From Eledone cirrhosa (Eukaryota), in assembly GCA_964016885.1 (NCBI GenBank), contig OZ024740.1, forward strand, positions 372,682,001 to 372,746,000: a stretch of 64,000 nt of DNA. Reading direction: 5' to 3'. Made by a program: the position numbers and the translations under genes. This document shows positions 2,003 to 39,244 of the stretch, one piece after another; positions within the stretch are counted from its first letter, which is position 1, and every line of letters starts with the position of its first letter. The notes beneath the pieces are model-generated. The model saw only the letters and a list, made by a program, of their open reading frames with translations. It was not told where the DNA came from and did not search any database.

Positions 2003-2269
2003 ATAAATGGAAAAAAATGAAACAAAATTTCATTTCTCACTCTTAGTACAGCTGTTACTTAAATATAAGTATGTATACGTACATACATATATGTATACAG
2101 ACGTACAGTAGTATGTATATACATACATACATGCACATATACATATATATGTACGTATGGGTTTACCGAACATTTATTATAACGCTCGGTTTGTTTGTAA
2201 ACAAACAGCCCGTATTAAGCCGTACAGTGTTTAGCAACCATCGTTGCCCTTTTGTTCAACACTGACAAA
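2003..2269 (-). mobile_element. Partial, permuted copy of the HHR-bearing ~430-nt element found at 26.0-26.4 kb
   Basis: 2003-2110 matches ~26298-26400 and 2151-2269 matches ~26016-26133. TA runs lie on both sides. Confidence 0.75.
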
Positions 2270-2467: not shown

Positions 2468-5284
2468 ATTAACTGTTCAATTGAACCTTCCAACATTAAT
2501 CATAAAGGTCCCCACGCAGAGTGAGCGATGTAATGTCTTTTGCACCAAGAATGGAAACCTTTAGCCCGGCAAGTTGAGCACTCTAAATATACAAGGATAT
2601 AAAGCAATAGACAGAACTAGAATGGAGTTATATGAGATTTACTAATCTACAAAGAACACACCAACACAAACAAACACAATTTACAATAAATTGTTGAGGC
2701 ACTACTCTTCGATTAGAAATCCACCACTATGGATTATATATTTCACTTTACACGCACGAGGAATCACATCGTCGCACATAATCTATATCGATGACATCCC
2801 TACCGCACAATATAAGAACTAGACTGATATACATATACCCCAATGAATGCAAACAAATGGATATGAATTTTGTTGAAATAAATATTATCTAATATAAATA
2901 CATATGAATACAAAGGAAATTGCAATAAAGACTATTACATACCGTAGGTGCACATATATACACATATATAGTGTTAATGTGTGTGTTGGTGTGAGGAACA
3001 TGAATATGTGTGTATCTGTGCGGATGTTTCTGTGTGTTTGCAGATGTGTATGTGTGTCAGAGAGAAAGAAAGGGTGTGAGAGAGACAGCGCGAGAGAGAG
3101 AAAAAGAAACATAGTGATTTAATGTAAGAATTGAAGGAGTGTAGAATTTATTATGTTTTTGTCAGTTTGCAGTTTTGTGATCAGTGGCCCAAGAAGGCAA
3201 AGTAAATCTGATGAAGATTGCATATTCAGACAACAGTCGCCAGTCTTTGTGTGTATTTTGTGATACTTTTAATGCAATACTTAGTGTTTTGCCAATTTCT
3301 TCCTCCACATACGCCTACATTTACGTGCATATAGAAAAGCGTGCATTCACACAAACTCACATAAACACAGATATACACACGCATATATATGAGCGGATCT
3401 AATTATAGAAGCAATTGAAATATATATTAGCCAATATAGTGTTAAACTGTTTGCATTCTATCATAGTGCGTCTGATCAGACTTTTATATGAAGTTGAAAG
3501 CTGTAGGGAATTAATATCAGGTGAGCCCTTTCCTTTGAATTAAATGATTTTTTTTCTAGTTTATCCACACATTATCGTCCAATGATTTATAAAACAAACC
3601 AATAATCTAATGGATTTATGCCATGAACACTTATCCTTCTCCTGAGCATGGACTAACCATTTCTATTTTAATAAATATACCCTTCATATTTTCTAAAAAT
3701 TGCAAGGCATAATTTTAAAAGATTACGTTGTTGTTTCTTCCATATAGTGTGAACACAAGTCTCTGTAATAAAGCCAATATAACGCCAAAAGCAAGGCGCT
3801 GTGGAGGGAACTGAAAGATATGTTGAGGAGTTTATGTTCATCTTGATTTAATTAAATATCGAATATTTTTAGCTTATAGTTTGGGATTAACAATATTTTA
3901 ATACTTAGGCCAACAATATACTAAGATTCGTTGATCTCCGTTCATCATCACTCGACTTAATGCTGGATATATGCATATGAGTGAACTGGAATCTTTTTGT
4001 CAAGTGAATGCAACATCCATTATATCCACTAAGTGTTTAAACCCCTGTTGCATGGTTACTAAATGCCTCTATTCAGCAGAAGCAAGAGGGTAGCAACAGA
4101 TTCTGGCTGTGTGGTCGTTGTAAAGTTTACACACCATTCCTCGCCACATATTGCAACTCAAATACTAAGTTTTAACGTTTATATATATAGGCTACATGCC
4201 CTTCCTCGCCGATATATATATATATCAATTGTGATGATGATACCATGCGCGGAAATGCTATAAGATGGCCTATAACAGAGTGTGAAGGCACATAAAGTCG
4301 GAAAAAAAGAATTTGCCATAGTCCTCTGCGAGGAATCGAACTAGGTATCCACTAGACACTCAATGTCATTGATGATAAGGTAAACAAATTTGCCTCATAT
4401 CCTGCTAACCATGGCATCAAAAGCATGAAACCTATTCTTACTCACCAGGAACACACTGCACAGAACAAATTAATTCAAAAACGTCTTTCAATACCTTACT
4501 CTAGTCCTTCTACACACACATATACCCCCCCCCCCCACACACACACACGTATATATATATATATATAAAATGCACACATTAGAACGTCGAGGATATCAAA
4601 AAACAAGTACCAAAATATTCGAAAAACGAATGATACATTTTCACAATTTATACGCTATTCTATACGTAGAAATCTAGTGAAAAAAAATAGAAAAGAAAGA
4701 AAAAGGAGAACATCACAGGGGGTTTCCTATGCCAATATACTACGTGTACTAGAATCTTTATCCGAGTAAGGAAAATGTTCAGCCAAAATGACAGAACGCA
4801 ACATTAATGTGAGGAATGTTGATAAATAATAGTGATGAGTCGATTTTCTCTGTCGGCAACTTGCCAAAACAAGAAGGTATATTTGTTACTTTAAATATTG
4901 CTTTAAGCTACTGGAATACGCCATGTAGAGATTGCATGAGAAAAGCTGGATTAAGAAATGGATAAGAAAGATAAGAAAATCAACGCTCTCTTTTCAAACT
5001 ATAATTTTCATCAATTTTCTAAATTGTGAAGATAAATTTCTTTCGAGTGTTTGCGTCTTTTTTTTCTCTTTTTTTGTTGTATATATAGTGAAATGAAAAA
5101 CGAAAGAACTATATATCTCACTTTCAAATTCACCTAATCTCTTCACTGCTTCACATGCACATAAGAACACAAAACACAACAAAAAATATACATTTAGACA
5201 AACACACCCACACATACAACTTGCCCCTCTGTCTATGTATATAAATATGAATATAAATAAATAAATATATATACATATATATGC

Positions 5285-5328
<44 letters not shown>

Positions 5329-5338
<10 letters not shown>

Positions 5339-5788
5339 CGTAAAATAAGAAAATTATAAAATTAACTTACTTACTAAAATTTCACTCCCAACTAATTAGT
5401 TTCTGAAATGGAATAAATATACTTTCCGAAGAAAATATATAGAATCATTTCGTCGTCAGGGAAGACTATTCTCAGCTAAGTATCCAGGCAAAGTGTGGAC
5501 TCTGGAAACTTATTCAAAAATAATTCAGTGGATAGAAAATAGCAAAGCGTGGACTGAATTCCTAGCCACGCTTTGCCTGGATACTTAGCTGAGAATAGTC
5601 TTCCCTGACGACGAAATGATTATCAATATTTTCTTCGGAAAGTATATTTATTCCATTTCAGAAACTAATTAGTTAGGAGTGAAATTTTAGTAAGTAAGTT
5701 AATTTTATAATTATCTTATTTTACGTCTCTCATATTATTGTTCTGCAACCCCATGCATTGAACCACAAAGTTACTAAGACAAAACCTA
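5329..5788. mobile_element. Fold-back insertion in (TA)n with ~170-bp inverted arms
   Basis: 5329-5498 and 5566-5735 are near-perfect inverted repeats with a 67-nt spacer and a short unique 3' extension. It is bounded by TA runs. Confidence 0.75.
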
Positions 5789-5829
5789 TATATTTGCTAG
5801 CATTGATATGCATCTGTATGTATATATAT

Positions 5830-8478
5830 GTTACTAGATATTAATTCTTTATAATTATCTCCAAATTATTTGTCGAGCAATATTGGCCAAGACTATGGTA
5901 GCAGGCAGGCCGCTGTCTTATTAACAAACCACTTTCCACAGATTGACCTCGATGTCACGTGATTGATTCTTTTTGAATTTGCCACCGACGCAGAGGCAGT
6001 GATTTTCTCAACCGCTCGTGTATTAAACATATCCTGAGACATCTCAACCGCCAATTACACATCCATAAGCGGACACTCTCAGAGCGGACACATCGACTAA
6101 CAATAACACGCGGCGACTTGCTCCTTAAAATCACAAAAGCAATCGACCAGTGCTACCACTCCAGAGTCCAACACGAACAAAAAAACGGTTCAAGCGGAAA
6201 TATAAGTGGATCTTGTCTAAACTCCACAACGAAAACACCGACACTAACAAACAGACAGACCAGAACCACGTGGAAGACAACAACGTAACAACCGCCGCCG
6301 TCGCATCCACCAACACCGAACCACACCTCAACGATGAGACGCACCTGGTCACCAACCTAACCGGCACCCTCACGAACGACGAGCTGAAACTCCTACACCT
6401 CGGACCCAAGTTCATCGTCTCACAACTACTCGACGACAGACTCAAACTCGACATCGAAGCCAACTTCTGTTGAGCCGCCTACCAACTTAAATGGGTGACC
6501 GCCATCAACAGCGCCACGGAAAATAACCGCGCCCACGCACCCCCCCACCAGTTCCACACTTACCACCTCGACAACCTACTCCCCTCCCCCACCCACCAAC
6601 CACGAACTCGACACTAAACTCATCAAGTTAAAACACTCCATCTCGTATATTCTACACAACACATACACACAGGCACAACACACAACCTCACCGAATCTCA
6701 ACTCACCACTCTCTCCAGCCTGAAATCGAAGAACCTCATCTACCTCCCCTCCGTCAAGGGAAAATAATTCTGCGTCATCAGCAGAGAGGCCTACAACACC
6801 CTGGATCTCCAACACCTTGACGATGACAACCTCTATTCAAAAGTCACAGGAATCACTCTCGCGCAGATAGAGGAGCACATCAACGCCGCCTGGACCAACA
6901 TCTGAGACTGGCGGAAGCTCCCAAATAAGCTGAGATACAACAGCTGACTACCCGCCTCTACCACCTTGTGAAAACACTCAAACAGGGACCCGACCTGAAG
7001 ATTAGACCCATTGTATCGAGCGTGGAAGGTCCGCGCTACAAAATTTCATGGCTCCTAGCCAGAATACTCAAACCCATCATAGATACCTTGCCAGGACACG
7101 TAAACAGCTCCGAAGAGGTGTTGGAACGCCTGCATCAAATGGGTCCCGACACCAGAAAGGCCTTCAGCTTTAATGTAGTCGCTCTTTACACCTGGGTCCC
7201 GGCACTCCCGGCCGTTGATATACTGATGGAACGCGTCCAATCTACCGACCTACACTGCTTCGGGCTCACCCCCAATGTCATCCACCAACTCCTATCCGTC
7301 GTCACTGGCAACACATACTTCGGCTTTCTCGACCAAACATACCAGCACACCTCGGGGTTGCCCATGGGCTCAAGCCTGTCGGGTGTGCTAGCGATCTCAT
7401 ACATGGACAGCCTCGAGGGAAAGCCACTCAATACCTGCCACCCCAACGCCGTCGCCTTTTTCTCAAGGTACGTGGACGATATCCTCATCCTCACATCTTC
7501 CCAGGAGATGGCGAACGGAATTTATGAGAGGTTCAACAACACTTGCCCTCCTCGACTTCCGAATCAACATCACGGAACAGGGAGGGATCCACACCAACTT
7601 CTACCGTAAGGCAGCCTGCAGGGACTTGTTTGTCCACTACAATTCTGCTCTAATAGTGCAAAAAGAGGGTACGTCACGAACTAGATCACGAATAAGAGAC
7701 ACCAGACGCAAGAGGCAGAGAAACAACCAAGGCAAGTGCTTCCTTAAAATACCACACCTGGGAGAGAATACCACCAACGCTATCCGCAGGGTTAAACGGA
7801 GGGAGGGCCTCGACATCCACCTGGCCCACACGGGCCCCTCTCTGCGAAGATGCCTCTCCAGGAAACCCGGGAAATCCACTGACCCGTGTTCCCTCAGAAA
7901 CTGCCCGATGCGCCATACGAACTGTTTCTTACGCACCTACGTCGTGTATAAGGTAGAATGTGACAAGTGCAACCACTACTATATCGGTAGCACAATCCGG
8001 CCGCTACACATACGGATCAAGGAGCACATCAACACCAGGGCCTCGTCTTTCCTGAAACACGTAACCAAATGCGGAAACAAAGCCGGAAGGCCCATTGACA
8101 CAGTGCTAGTGACAGAACGCAACGTCGGCTCGTTACGAATCAAGGAAGCACTTTTGATCAAACGCATAGGGCCACAAATAAATAACCGATCCGGGAGAAG
8201 CGAAATGAAGTGGTTGGTGTAAACAAACGAGACACCAATACACGCACACACACACACAAGCGAGACAACAACACACGCACACACACACATACATACACAC
8301 AGTAGCATTCCACCAAACAAGCAGACGAATACCACCAACATACGAATATACTACACTGCTAATACAGAAACCATCACAGATAGATAATACAATGGATTGA
8401 CAGCTAACGCCACCCCACCCGGAGAATTAACCATCTGCATTGTTCATGCTTCCAAAACGACCAAAAGAAAATAAACCA
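5830..8478 (+). mobile_element. Penelope-like retroelement, decayed (RT + C-terminal GIY-YIG endonuclease)
   Basis: PLE N-terminal motif VTNLT...ELKLLHLGPKF (6150-6473). RT motifs RPIVS, SFNVVALY, GLPMGSSLS and RYVDDI (6968-7530). GIY-YIG YVVYKVECDKCNHYYIGST...RIKEH...KEALLI (7524-8222). Outer boundaries are approximate. Confidence 0.9.
6150..8222 (+). pseudogene. Disrupted PLE RT/GIY-YIG polyprotein
   Basis: Consecutive ORF pieces are broken by stops and frameshifts. The thumb region appears deleted after HYNSAL (~7655). Confidence 0.85.
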
Positions 8479-8479
8479 T

Positions 8480-8530
<51 letters not shown>

Positions 8531-9379
8531 ATAACTAGAAATTAATTAACATATATGTAAACATGAATAATCACAGGAGATAATTTTTACAAGTGTGTAA
8601 CCACTTGTGTGGTTACACACTTGTAAAAATTATCTCCTGTGATTATTCATGTTTACATATATGTTAATCAATTTCTAGTTATTATAAAATGCTCGGACCT
8701 ACTCGTTAGAATCTCGTAGCTTATTTTCCGGGTGATATGGCGCATGTCTTTCTGACATGACACCGATAATTTTGATTTAGATTGAATTCATTTAATTATC
8801 TTAATTTTGGATATAGATATATAAATACGGCTCCTTAATTGTAGAGCTAACTCTGTTGAAAGGACTCGACTGCTGTTTCTAGTTGTCGATAACCCTATTC
8901 ACGCCACTGGGACGAAGCAACTATGATGTGTGTATTTATAGTAAATACAACACGTGGTAATAGCCAGTTGCAGATTTGAACTTGAAATGTAAGCGCGGAT
9001 GGCTGGAAAATTTTCTTCCTTGTTGAAAATTCAAAATCTCCACTTCCGTGGTTTACCATCTGATTAATTGGTGAAATATATTTCTTTAATGGAATATATA
9101 CAGGGAAGATTAATCATATTATAAGGTATATATTTTTGAAGTTCTAGTCAACTTTATTTAGTTACCTACCTAGCTATGTGTGGTTACACACTTGTAAAAA
9201 TTATCTCCTGTGATTATTCATGTTTATATATATGTTAATCAATTTCTAGTTATTATAAAATGCTCGGACCTACTCGTTAGAATCTTGGAGCTTATTTTCT
9301 GGGTGATATGGCGCATGCCTTTCTGGCATGACACCCATAATTTTGATTTAGATTGAATTCATTTAATTTATCTTAATGT

Positions 9380-9381
<2 letters not shown>
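8531..9381 (+). mobile_element. Non-coding element with ~200-bp direct repeats (571-bp period) and an inverted 5' segment, like a PLE pseudo-LTR arrangement
   Basis: Near-perfect hairpin 8531-8604 / 8609-8682. Direct repeat 8606-8810 vs 9177-9381. (TA)n on both sides. Strand is assigned from the position of the inversion. Confidence 0.75.
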
Positions 9382-9434
<53 letters not shown>

Positions 9435-9435
<1 letters not shown>

Positions 9436-10410
9436 CTCGGAAAGGTTGTTTCGCCCTGGGGTTCTGTCAGACTTGGAATCCACCGTGCAACCGATTATTG
9501 ACCGCCAAACAGTACCTTTAAATTCTAGGCTTAATCGTAACTCTTAATTTAATCATGCCTCCTTCTACTAGCACTCAATCAGTACGAATAACTGGTAATC
9601 ATTTGGTATATAAGATGGTCAGCTGGCGGTAGCGGACTTCCCGCTAGCACACCCGACGCTTAAGACAGTTAGCATTCCTGGAGTGATCGGAAAAATAAAT
9701 TTACTTCTTTCGCTAGACGAAAATACTTTGAACGGTTGACACGGCGTTGGGCCCCGGGCTGGCGTTGCTGGTTAATGACCGCTAAGAATGGGCTTAATCC
9801 TTACTCTATATTTTACCCTGAAACTTTATCGTGACTACCTAAACCTTTTCATAAAAGACTCCTTCTGTAAATTCTTTAACTAAATCTCCCAACTTTAACG
9901 TAAATCTTACTTTTCTAATTTCATCTTAAATGGCATCTTTTAACTCTAAAAATAAATTTAACGTTTCTAATTGTTAATCGTAATTTCTGACCATACAATA
10001 TACTGTTCAGACGCCCTATATATAACTTTGTTAGAGCTATATGTTATTTGAAAAAAAATATTTTTCGCTGCTGCACTTTCTAGCACTCCTGACCGCTGGC
10101 CTGTCTATGACGGCTGTTGTACTAGTACACTATAAGCCTTCGCCCCTTCTCCCCTTCGCCAGAAGGACATAAGAAGACTTAATAATCATCACATGAGGGC
10201 GGTTGAGCGGGCTAAAAGCTGCTAAATGTACGGCCGCCCTCATGTCTCTTCTTTTCAGCCCCATGGATTTTGTCTATTATATTCCTTTGTTATATTTCAA
10301 ATACCTGATGATGTCATCAGATTCATACAGAACCCGGTCACTGAAATGATCATAGTATAATAATAATTTTAAGGAATTACACCAGCGCAGGTTCCTGTTA
10401 TTTTATAATA
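9435..10410 (+). mobile_element. 5'-truncated PLE relic (eroded GIY-YIG end, 3' UTR and HHR)
   Basis: Frameshifted translation gives KGCFALGFCQTW, LNSRLNRNS-NLI, QY..TGNHL and a terminal GLN, resembling a Neptune-type zinc-linker/GIY-YIG C-terminus. An HHR lies at 10301-10358. It is inserted between TA arrays. Confidence 0.6.
10301..10358 (+). ncRNA. Type I hammerhead ribozyme motif
   Basis: Stem I ATAC/GTAT, core CTGATGA (10305-11), eroded long stem II, GAAA (10343-46), palindromic stem III ATGATCAT, cleavage triplet AUA. Confidence 0.75.
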
Positions 10411-11721: not shown

Positions 11722-11838
11722 TGAGTTCAAATCCCGCCGAGGTTGACTTTGCCTTTCATCCTTAAGGGGTCGATAAAATAAAGTACCAGTAATGCACTGG
11801 GTAATTGCTGGCCTTGTGCCTAAAGTAGAAACAATTAT
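11722..11838 (+). mobile_element. tRNA-derived SINE family A, 5'-truncated
   Basis: B box GAGTTCAAATCC, body GACTTTGCCTTTCATCC...GTCGATAAAATAAAGTACCAGT, near-TSD ATTATTTRCATG. Confidence 0.85.
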
Positions 11839-12269
11839 TTACATGCTATTTTTATGTATATTTATCGATTTTCTAATATTAGTATTCGAATCGACTGTTC
11901 AAGCACAGTTTCGGAAGAATTTATCTAAATTCTGCTGGTAGGTCACTATTCCCTGATTTATATAGGATTAAAATTAATGAAAGTACTTGAATAATAGCAA
12001 TACTGGAGTTTTAGTTGTTTGAAATTGGTAGTGGCTTATGCCAAACACGGTGTGGGAGATCAGATTTCGTCTAGAACCTGTTATGGGAATAGATTCATTA
12101 TTAATGTGAATTGAAAATTGAAATAGTATATTGGACATACAAATGGAATAGTTTATAGTTGGTGAAATATCTCATAACAGGAAATATGCTCAATTGTTTC
12201 GGAGCTGTTGACTGGCTTATTCGACAAAATGTAATGAACCCTCGTTACTGTTTTTCTTAAAACTAACCA

Positions 12270-25330: not shown

Positions 25331-25833
25331 ATCTAGGAGCAGTTTAGGTATGATACATTTTATTACTAATTATATCTAAATGTTTCTACTCTCTTCATAA
25401 TGTATTTTTAACTCTGATACTGGTTCAGTCTAGTTCAACCGGATTGGTCTGTCCCAGTCATTCATTGAACAACATCGGTGAAGTTGGCACCCTTAACTCA
25501 CGGTTGGGTGCGGATGCATTCATGTATATGTGTGTGTCCGCATGTATCTGTGTGTTTCTAAATATATTGTTAATAACTCCCTCTGGTCGAGCAATCTTTG
25601 AAGTGTGGGGACTGCTGGAAAGCTTCCATTACTCATACTTCTCGCCTCCTTCACCACATCTTCTACGGCTTCGATATAAATGCCCCCTCCGCCTCCGTGG
25701 TATTTTCTTCGGGGTTATAAGAGGCTTAGCTCTGTTTCTCGACCGTTATATCGCGTGACTATCTCCCCCTCCGCCTTTTGGGATTCTTTCTCACGTCGTG
25801 TAGACGCGTTCTTGAGACTAGTAAAATGAGGTA

Positions 25834-25923
25834 TCCTCTTGATAAGTCGGCAGACCTCGCAGGGACTCTATATCTTTATGATGTATTGTTTTTCTTTATG
25901 CCACGAAACTACATAGTCGAGGA
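25834..25923 (+). ncRNA. Second copy of the U3-A8 hammerhead
   Basis: Same motif, except stem III reads ACTACATAGT (CpG decay). Predicted cleavage after 25918. Confidence 0.7.
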
Positions 25924-26015
25924 ATCTAGGAGCAGTTTAGGTATGATACATTTTATTACTAATTATATCTAAATGTTTCTTCTCTCTTCATAATGTATAT
26001 ATATATATATGTATA

Positions 26016-26548
<533 letters not shown>

Positions 26549-38134: not shown

Positions 38135-39071
38135 ATATTATGATGATCGTGGTAATATTTGTTGCGTTGATGATAAATAAGATGTTGATGATGATGATGA
38201 TGATACTTTCTATAAAAGCTATAAGAATGGGTAGTTGATTATATCTTTTCTTAAACTATTCAGTATAAATAGAAATGTAAATGTTCCTGAAATATTTTAT
38301 TCTATAATATAAAACATATACTGGTATTTAATTTCTTGCGTCTTAAATATAAAGTAGCTATGTACACACATCTCTTTTCCCCGTCGATGACTATTATGTA
38401 TATATATATGTATATATATACACATATTCCCTCCCCATATATATATATATACGTATATATCAAATATCTCCGTTTGTTTATATGCATATGTACATATATA
38501 CCTTATCATATTTAATTGAAATATTAAATCTTAGGAAAAGCAAGTAGTATCTGAATTAACAACGTTAAGACTTGCAATTTCTACAGAGTTATAGGAAAAC
38601 ATAAATAAATAAAATTAATTAATTCAATTTCGTTGAATGATTAATCCTTTTGTTAGATACTTATAGCAATTGACACATCCTACGGAATGAAAATTGTTCT
38701 TTACAAATATTTCGTAACATTGAATACTTAATATCAGCCATAGGGCATTATTTGGGTTATACCATTTATTGAAAGAATAAGTTAACTCAGGAAAGGAATA
38801 ATATATAGAAATATATTTTTTCTTTGCTAGGGGAGATGCAGGAAAAGAACGAAAAAGAAGACACGGTAAGTGTTTAGCAGAATAATTAAATTAAAAATGT
38901 TATTCAAATATTTTTTCTTATATTTTATTTGTTAGCGTTTGCTATTGCTTTCAAATTTTGAATAGAAATAAATTGGCTACTGCTTATAAAAATCAATGCT
39001 TTCCAGATGTTAGCCTACTACTACTACTACTACTACTAATAATAATAATAATAATGATAATAATACATAAT

Positions 39072-39244
39072 TGTTTCTATGTTTGGCACATTATCCAGTG
39101 AATTACTGGTACTTTATTTTATCGACACCGTAAGGATGAAAGGCAGAGTTAACCTCGGCGGGATTTGAACTCAGAATGGCAAGGGCCGTAACTCTATACG
39201 TCAAAGCATGGCGTCCGACCCTCTACCGAAACTGCCAATCCACC
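39072..39244 (-). mobile_element. tRNA-derived SINE family A inserted in the LINE tail
   Basis: Reverse copy with an 11-bp TSD TAATACATAAT (39061-71, 39245-55). Confidence 0.9.

Follow-up and report, generated by a model that had tools for sequence, protein, structure and literature searches.

Does self-cleavage by a hammerhead ribozyme set the ends of the genomic copies made from the RNA that carries it? The question is raised by a 267-nt piece at positions 2003-2269 of the Eledone cirrhosa DNA analyzed here, a window of 64,000 nt (GenBank assembly GCA_964016885.1, contig OZ024740.1, positions 372,682,001 to 372,746,000). The piece represents part of a non-coding, hammerhead-bearing repeat that is very abundant and has a unit length of 431 nt, and it carries its segments in the order B-linker-A, versus A-hammerhead-mid-B in the family member at 26 kb (Table 1). 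A sequence-only reading of the window had noticed this permutation and the proximity of one end of the piece to the predicted cleavage site of the family, and had proposed a circular or tandem unit of about 430 nt, an RNA 5' end set by self-cleavage, and, by extension, genomic evidence of ribozyme activity in vivo. Alignment and descriptor searches confirmed the coordinates and segment order it had given, and the B piece ahead of A at 25 kb, and they put the predicted cleavage at 26143/26142.

Table 1. Coordinates of the repeat copies, their segments and the Penelope-like reading frames in the window.
Feature	Position	Strand	Evidence or remark
B segment, 2-kb copy	2003..2107	-	91/105 identical to 26298-26402; left end joins (TA)n, homologous to 48294
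TA-rich linker hairpin, B to A, overlapping end of B	2065..2158	-	inverted repeats; linker letters at B-to-A joints in DNA reads
A segment, 2-kb copy	2148..2269	-	113/122 ungapped to 26012-26133; then (TA)n
Broken Penelope-like RT ORF	~6129-8222	+	RT match E 2e-8
End of B and left half of linker; likely left end of 26-kb copy	25011..25094	-	78/84 to 2060-2143; 45/48 to 26355-26402
Unrelated insert splitting linker	25167..25998	.	593-nt unit + 239-nt direct repeat (235/239); left end at (TA)n
Right half of linker and A segment, 26-kb copy	25998..26133	-	alignment to 2-kb copy
Type I hammerhead motif (self-cleavage predicted)	26134..26200	-	descriptor; fold z -3.1
Mid segment	26201..26297	-	homologous to 48680-48742, E 0.006 and 0.0008
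B segment; copy ends inside linker hairpin, adjoining (TA)n	26298..26402	-	alignment to 2-kb copy
Sister element B-linker-A-hammerhead-mid-B	48294..48850	-	466-nt unit + 91-nt terminal repeat, 91/91 identical
Penelope-like ORF, 870 aa	53734-56346	-	look-alike clusters with GIY-YIG families on 26-50% of members; C-terminal GIY-YIG-like region

The organization of the unit was examined in runs X1, X2, X4 and X10 among 12 listed, which were compared against 26012-26402; X5-X9, with small shares, were left out. X1 and X2 derive from a single sample, X4 is labeled as a different organism, and X10 is a reduced-representation (RAD) DNA run. Matches were found in 78,200 of 12.5 million X10 reads (0.6%, which is not a copy number) and in 4,600-10,200 contigs each from X1, X2 and X4. 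Among the 15 of 116 joints listed were four from X10 that lead from 26400-26402 back to 26012-26025, carried by 642 reads at 36 starts, 377 at 18, 68 at 3 and 33 at 5, and a B-to-A joint was also present in one X4 contig; linker-like letters lay between the segments at these joints. The B-to-A junction, carried by over 1,100 reads with dozens of different starts, indicates that the unit is arranged head to tail, and that the 2-kb copy is not the product of two insertions. Terminal direct repeats at 48 kb and at 25-26 kb also support the head-to-tail layout, so that the proposal of a circular or tandem unit held up in raw reads as well as in the sister element.

The sequence-only reading had named two independent adjacent insertions of B and A at 2 kb as a circumstance that would overturn its interpretation, and the check did not do so. 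The TA-rich linker is a possible insertion target, and another element did insert there at 25-26 kb, but the idea is very improbable given the recurrence of the junction in the reads, at 25011-25094 and in the sister family, and given that the linker is a conserved hairpin. Compared with the 48-kb linker, the hairpin has 24 predicted pairs, of which none is broken and 2 are compensatory (two sequences).

The predicted RNA of the unit is strongly self-paired and non-coding. The 431-nt unit folded with a z-score of -6.4, and none of 100 shuffled sequences was as stable; the GC content was 0.32-0.38 and the longest ATG-initiated ORF 37-64 aa across both families. We interpreted the large groups of loose alignment ends at 26114, 26175, 26332 and 26365 as diverged subfamilies and not as copy ends, since the letters beyond them continue as unit-like sequence. 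Copies with two complete hammerheads were absent among the three in the window, and no listed read or contig piece spanned a full unit. A 19-mer pattern matched 24 metagenome and 4 viral loci, 0/28 of which aligned to the unit over at least 30 nt, and a second pattern found nothing in the genome and viral contigs scanned.

The 26-kb motif, on the minus strand, comprises a core at 26173-26167, GAAA at 26152-26149, a GUU triplet, a stem II with a U-U base and a palindromic stem III; except when paired in a dimer, stem III has 2 bp and a loop of 2 nt. By its sequence the motif is a type I hammerhead, with predicted self-cleavage. A strict descriptor (CUGANGA + GAAA core, NUH triplet, open stem I, closed stems II and III) found two motifs in the window, at 26173 and 48626, and none in 20/20 block-shuffled windows. 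At the Rfam gathering score there were no matches in the whole window, and E-value scans of the 26-kb motif returned no hammerhead, only low-complexity miRNA and snoRNA matches that we took as chance.

Most family copies differ from the 26-kb copy within the ribozyme. The triplet is GUA in 89% of X1, 92% of X2, 94% of X10 and 62% of X4 matches, and two changes at 26178-26179, present in 93-99% of the family, lengthen stem I from 4 to 6 pairs (by inspection). Between the 26-kb and 48-kb motifs 5/13 predicted pairs are compensatory and none is broken, in a comparison of two sequences where the fold pairs part of the core and is not the active shape.

The sister element at 48 kb is 557 nt long, or 1.20 units, and its two terminal repeats are identical. 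Its hammerhead (48573-48644) scored 38.6 bits against Rfam Hammerhead_HH9 (E 7.8e-9), below the gathering score of 52, and its predicted cut at 48596/48595 is crossed by the copy. Folded as a circle, the sister unit had a z-score of -10.2, and 0/40 shuffles were as stable. Of the elements in the window, it is the one that most cleanly qualifies as a candidate product of circle copying.

The sequence-only reading had placed a B piece before A at 25010-25085, and that piece is real, probably representing where the 26-kb copy begins on the left. Some 900 nt stand between it and A, however, made up of a (CA)n tract and an unrelated insert of 832 nt that the reading had not mentioned. No hammerhead was detected in the insert with the descriptor, and no Rfam ribozyme at E<=1 in 25160-25800. 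Whether the two B pieces of the 26-kb copy came from one template was not discriminated by their sequences, as the 25011 piece matched the 26-kb B at 45/48 positions and the 2-kb copy at 46/48; an uncommon allele at 26369 is common to the 25011 piece and the 26-kb B. Within B of this copy, eight differences from the family are clustered at 26318-26331, where they break the hairpin beside the likely start site; the cluster looks like one local rearrangement and not like point changes.

At 2 kb, the alignment of A extends over 2143-2269 against 26007-26133 with 92% identity, and the right end, 2269, is equivalent to 26133, so that 9 nt are missing up to the predicted cut, or 10 should the final A belong to the flanking (TA)n. 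The copy carries the common allele of the family at 12/12 positions checked, which were chosen from the 40 rows listed of 272; it therefore looks young, and the 26-kb copy is the more decayed one. TA tracts flank the 2-kb copy on both sides, and so no target duplication can be read.

The neighborhood of the 2-kb copy has peculiarities of its own. Directly to its left lies a 500-nt palindrome (1492-1991, 97.6%) centered on (TA)n, with a third piece of 56 nt at 1072-1127; an insertion of two strands, a fold-back duplication and an assembly artefact are all conceivable origins of the palindrome. The right flank, 2270-2292, is similar to the first bases of the 25011 piece if a gap of 7 nt is allowed, and is possibly a very short second copy or possibly a chance likeness in AT-rich DNA.

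A longer insertion might later have lost its hammerhead side by a deletion with a breakpoint in the flanking (TA)n, an explanation that the TA tracts on both sides, with the target duplication unreadable, and a potentially unstable palindrome as left neighbor would accommodate. It is nonetheless improbable, as the copy looks young by its alleles and no mid or hammerhead remnant was found nearby.

The ends of the copies differ in how well they are fixed. The left ends at 2003 and 48294 meet (TA)n at one and the same position of the homologous sequence, immediately outside the hairpin, and the third, at 25011, lies 57 nt further in with a similar motif at its start. Thus (TA)n adjoins 3/3 left ends and a common start is seen in 2/3, while the right ends of the three copies all differ. 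The better-fixed end of the copies is the left one, and not the one on the side of the cut. A start shared by two copies has p 0.007 under a uniform model, or about 1 in 15 if any ATA microhomology primes, and there was no step in depth at 26298. These left ends, which are the 3' end in the ribozyme sense, are likely the starts of reverse transcription.

From the shared start, a linear monomer cut at the predicted site could yield at most 276 nt. The copy at 2 kb falls within this limit, but the 26-kb copy, at 479 nt (1.11 units), and the longer sister element hold an intact cut site and so must have come from a circle, from a tandem left uncut, or through a template jump. Since a circle has no end at the cut, a circular template and a cleavage-set end exclude each other for any single insertion. 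The same unit-plus-repeat layout next to (TA)n was found in two elements without a detected hammerhead (25167-25998 and 8606-9399), and permutation alone therefore says nothing about cleavage. An R2-like, ribozyme-defined 5' end would have full-length copies begin at the cleavage site, and two of the three window copies cross it.

The reads and contigs also gave little sign of a boundary at the cut. The ratio of depth in the bin with the cut to that in the bin on its left was 1.17 in X1, 1.21 in X2, 1.66 in X4, and 0.97 and 0.73 in the minus and plus mates of X10, so that depth is continuous over the cut in 4/5 columns and drops by 27% in the X10 plus mates, which may be explained by 150-nt RAD reads with fixed starts. 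None of the four listed places where matches begin or end, and none of the 24 loose ends listed of 1,236, fell at 26131-26143; contigs show ends poorly and RAD reads sample loci unevenly, which limits the detection of ends in both. Two listed joints do have their breakpoint at 26131, 11 nt before the cut is reached: an X10 joint to the opposite strand, with 115 reads at 5 starts, and a contig joint in X1. These are a weak hint of cleavage-set ends.

By chance, a right-side end would fall within 10 nt of the cut with p 0.023, and at least one of the three window ends would do so with p 0.07-0.13, under a uniform model applied post hoc. When six opposite-strand joint ends are pooled with the three window ends, 2/9 are no more than 12 nt away from the cut (p 0.02-0.09, also post hoc, from a filtered list and with the joint orientation assumed). 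All three right ends in the window lie in predicted stems, which makes stalling an equal candidate.

It is doubtful, although consistent with several of these observations, that the 2-kb copy is the run-off product of a self-cleaved linear monomer, a minority route in which the last 9-11 nt were trimmed or remained paired in stem I while longer copies came from circles or uncut tandems. The copy spans 267 of the possible 276 nt, the joints at 26131 would belong to the same class, and the GUA majority, the two restored stem I pairs and the compensatory pairs suggest a ribozyme that has been maintained. Against run-off, the window offers a single such copy, which is not flush with the cut, and the pile-up and general depth step that might have been expected did not appear among the data listed, with chance accounting for such an end at a level of 2-13%. 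Cleavage was not required for insertion of the anole element in vitro (PMC11167929), and only 1/9 predicted Xenopus retrozymes cut in vitro (bioRxiv 2026.07.22.740005).

The claim that self-cleavage set the RNA 5' end thus comes down to one copy, as 2/3 window copies cross the cut, and it was not established. Nor does the 2-kb copy give genomic evidence of activity in vivo, the other copies examined running mostly through the cut site. That a minority class of copies ends at the cut, and hence that cleavage occurs in vivo, is a testable minority hypothesis and not a finding, and we regard it as unlikely. We would put forward with still more reserve, as rather unlikely, a combined scheme in which one internal start and a Penelope-type enzyme serve two templates, such that cut monomers yield ends 9-11 nt short of the site and religated circles yield copies of 1.1-1.2 units with perfect repeats. 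If this two-template reading were true, counting ends over thousands of copies would allow both in vivo cleavage and circle-templated retrotransposition to be read from DNA.

Our preferred reading is that the 2-kb piece, a partial copy of a 431-nt, head-to-tail, retrozyme-like, non-autonomous element, was probably made by Penelope machinery from circular or uncut tandem RNA, with an early stop near the cut. A Penelope-type reverse transcriptase-endonuclease would nick a (TA)n tract, and priming would occur at a preferred internal site of a minus-strand RNA, the presumed template. This RNA, circular or an uncut tandem, would be copied over a variable distance, and at 2 kb copying would have stopped early, near the cut by chance or by a stall in ribozyme stem I.

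Penelope-like elements are the likely source of the mobilizing enzyme, and two are present in the window (Table 1). A Pfam search identified a reverse transcriptase in 1/3 Penelope-like frames and nothing in the 870-aa ORF. When the unit was compared with the ends of both Penelope-like elements of the window, no sequence likeness was found, and no ORF with reverse transcriptase and GIY-YIG domains lies beside any of the three copies there; with no Penelope-like ORF attached to them, these copies do not qualify as pseudo-LTRs of an autonomous element. Opposite-strand joints numbered 3 among the 15 listed (of 116).

Several features around the Penelope-like frames were recorded as well. Beside the 870-aa ORF is a long 3' region (51205-53733), in which 52724-53528 consists of tandem repeats of 293 nt; it also has a hammerhead-like core at 51291, with a (TC)n(TA)n tract following some 50 nt later. 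The broken reverse transcriptase frame is preceded by an inverted pair, 5329-5498 and 5566-5735, in which hammerhead-like cores occur at 5459 (-) and 5605 (+). Roughly 85 nt beyond the GAAA region, the inverted copy meets (TA)n, a distance near the spacing reported for the anole element. At 8527-9399, a 571-nt unit with a 222-nt direct repeat and a 78-nt inverted piece at its left sits between (TA)n tracts in a Penelope-like layout, and no hammerhead core was detected in it.

We compared these families with known systems. Metazoan non-LTR retrozymes are described as non-coding, head-to-tail units of about 150-450 nt with GC under 50% (Cervera and de la Pena 2020, PMC7229834), and a wider range of 51-972 nt has been given for retrozyme units (Li, Clavereau and Pollet 2026, bioRxiv 10.64898/2026.07.22.740005). 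The 431-nt unit falls inside the narrower range, and the 466-nt sister unit falls slightly above it and inside the wider one. Besides size, the likeness extends to GC, absence of coding capacity, type I hammerhead, head-to-tail layout, self-paired fold, abundance and co-occurrence with Penelope-like elements, and copies longer than one unit are a prediction of the circle model (PMC7761336). In its stem II with a U-U base and its palindromic stem III, the 26-kb motif recalls the two axolotl hammerheads. On its sequence characters the element fits as a further case of the known animal non-LTR retrozyme kind, and we file it as a retrozyme-like monomer family.

Unlike non-LTR retrozymes, the window copies comprise 0.6-1.2 units in (TA)n and lack a two-hammerhead dimer. 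A preferred internal start is likely here, and none is described for non-LTR retrozymes in the passages compared.

Penelope elements offer a second comparison. Their small hammerheads are cited in PMC7761336 as cutting as dimers, and for the anole element Poseidon from Anolis internal copying starts, cutting of AT-rich DNA, normal insertion in vitro by ribozyme mutants and no RNA-seq reads ending at the cut are reported (Frangieh et al. 2024, PMC11167929). With Penelope pseudo-LTRs as described there and by Craig et al. (2021, PMC8557442), our few copies seem to share partial tandems, frequent 5' truncation, inverted truncated neighbors and microsatellite targets, as well as a hammerhead in the repeat and internal starts with optional extension. 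They differ from Poseidon in the absence of an ORF beside the three copies, in a likely start 276-302 nt past the cut versus about 85-92 nt in the anole, and in two possible starts 57 nt apart versus a 30-40 nt tail.

A precedent for a ribozyme-defined 5' end is provided by the R2, RTE and L1Tc retrotransposons, in which HDV-like or twister ribozymes determine the 5' end (PMC7761336). In those elements the ribozyme lies downstream of a cut at the 5' boundary of the element, whereas most copies examined here hold an intact cut internally.

A literature search of titles and the beginnings of abstracts found no mapping of animal retrozyme copy ends against the cut, with subscription papers and supplements largely outside its scope. 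The role of the hammerhead in Penelope-like elements and retrozymes is stated as unclear, and copying from RNA circles appears as a model without direct genomic proof, in the texts of PMC8557442 and PMC7761336. Both questions, the role of the hammerhead and copying from circles, can be addressed by counting in a family that is very abundant, with variable ends and a start that is likely fixed. What this window adds now is two related retrozyme-like families and one suggestive end, which is not evidence of cleavage in vivo.

The window also contains a dispersed SINE-like repeat of about 190 nt in at least seven copies, at 11722-11851, 14676-14872, 17497-17675, 20723-20911, 39064-39244 and 44400-44885, the last of these intervals, at 44.4-44.9 kb, holding two in tandem.
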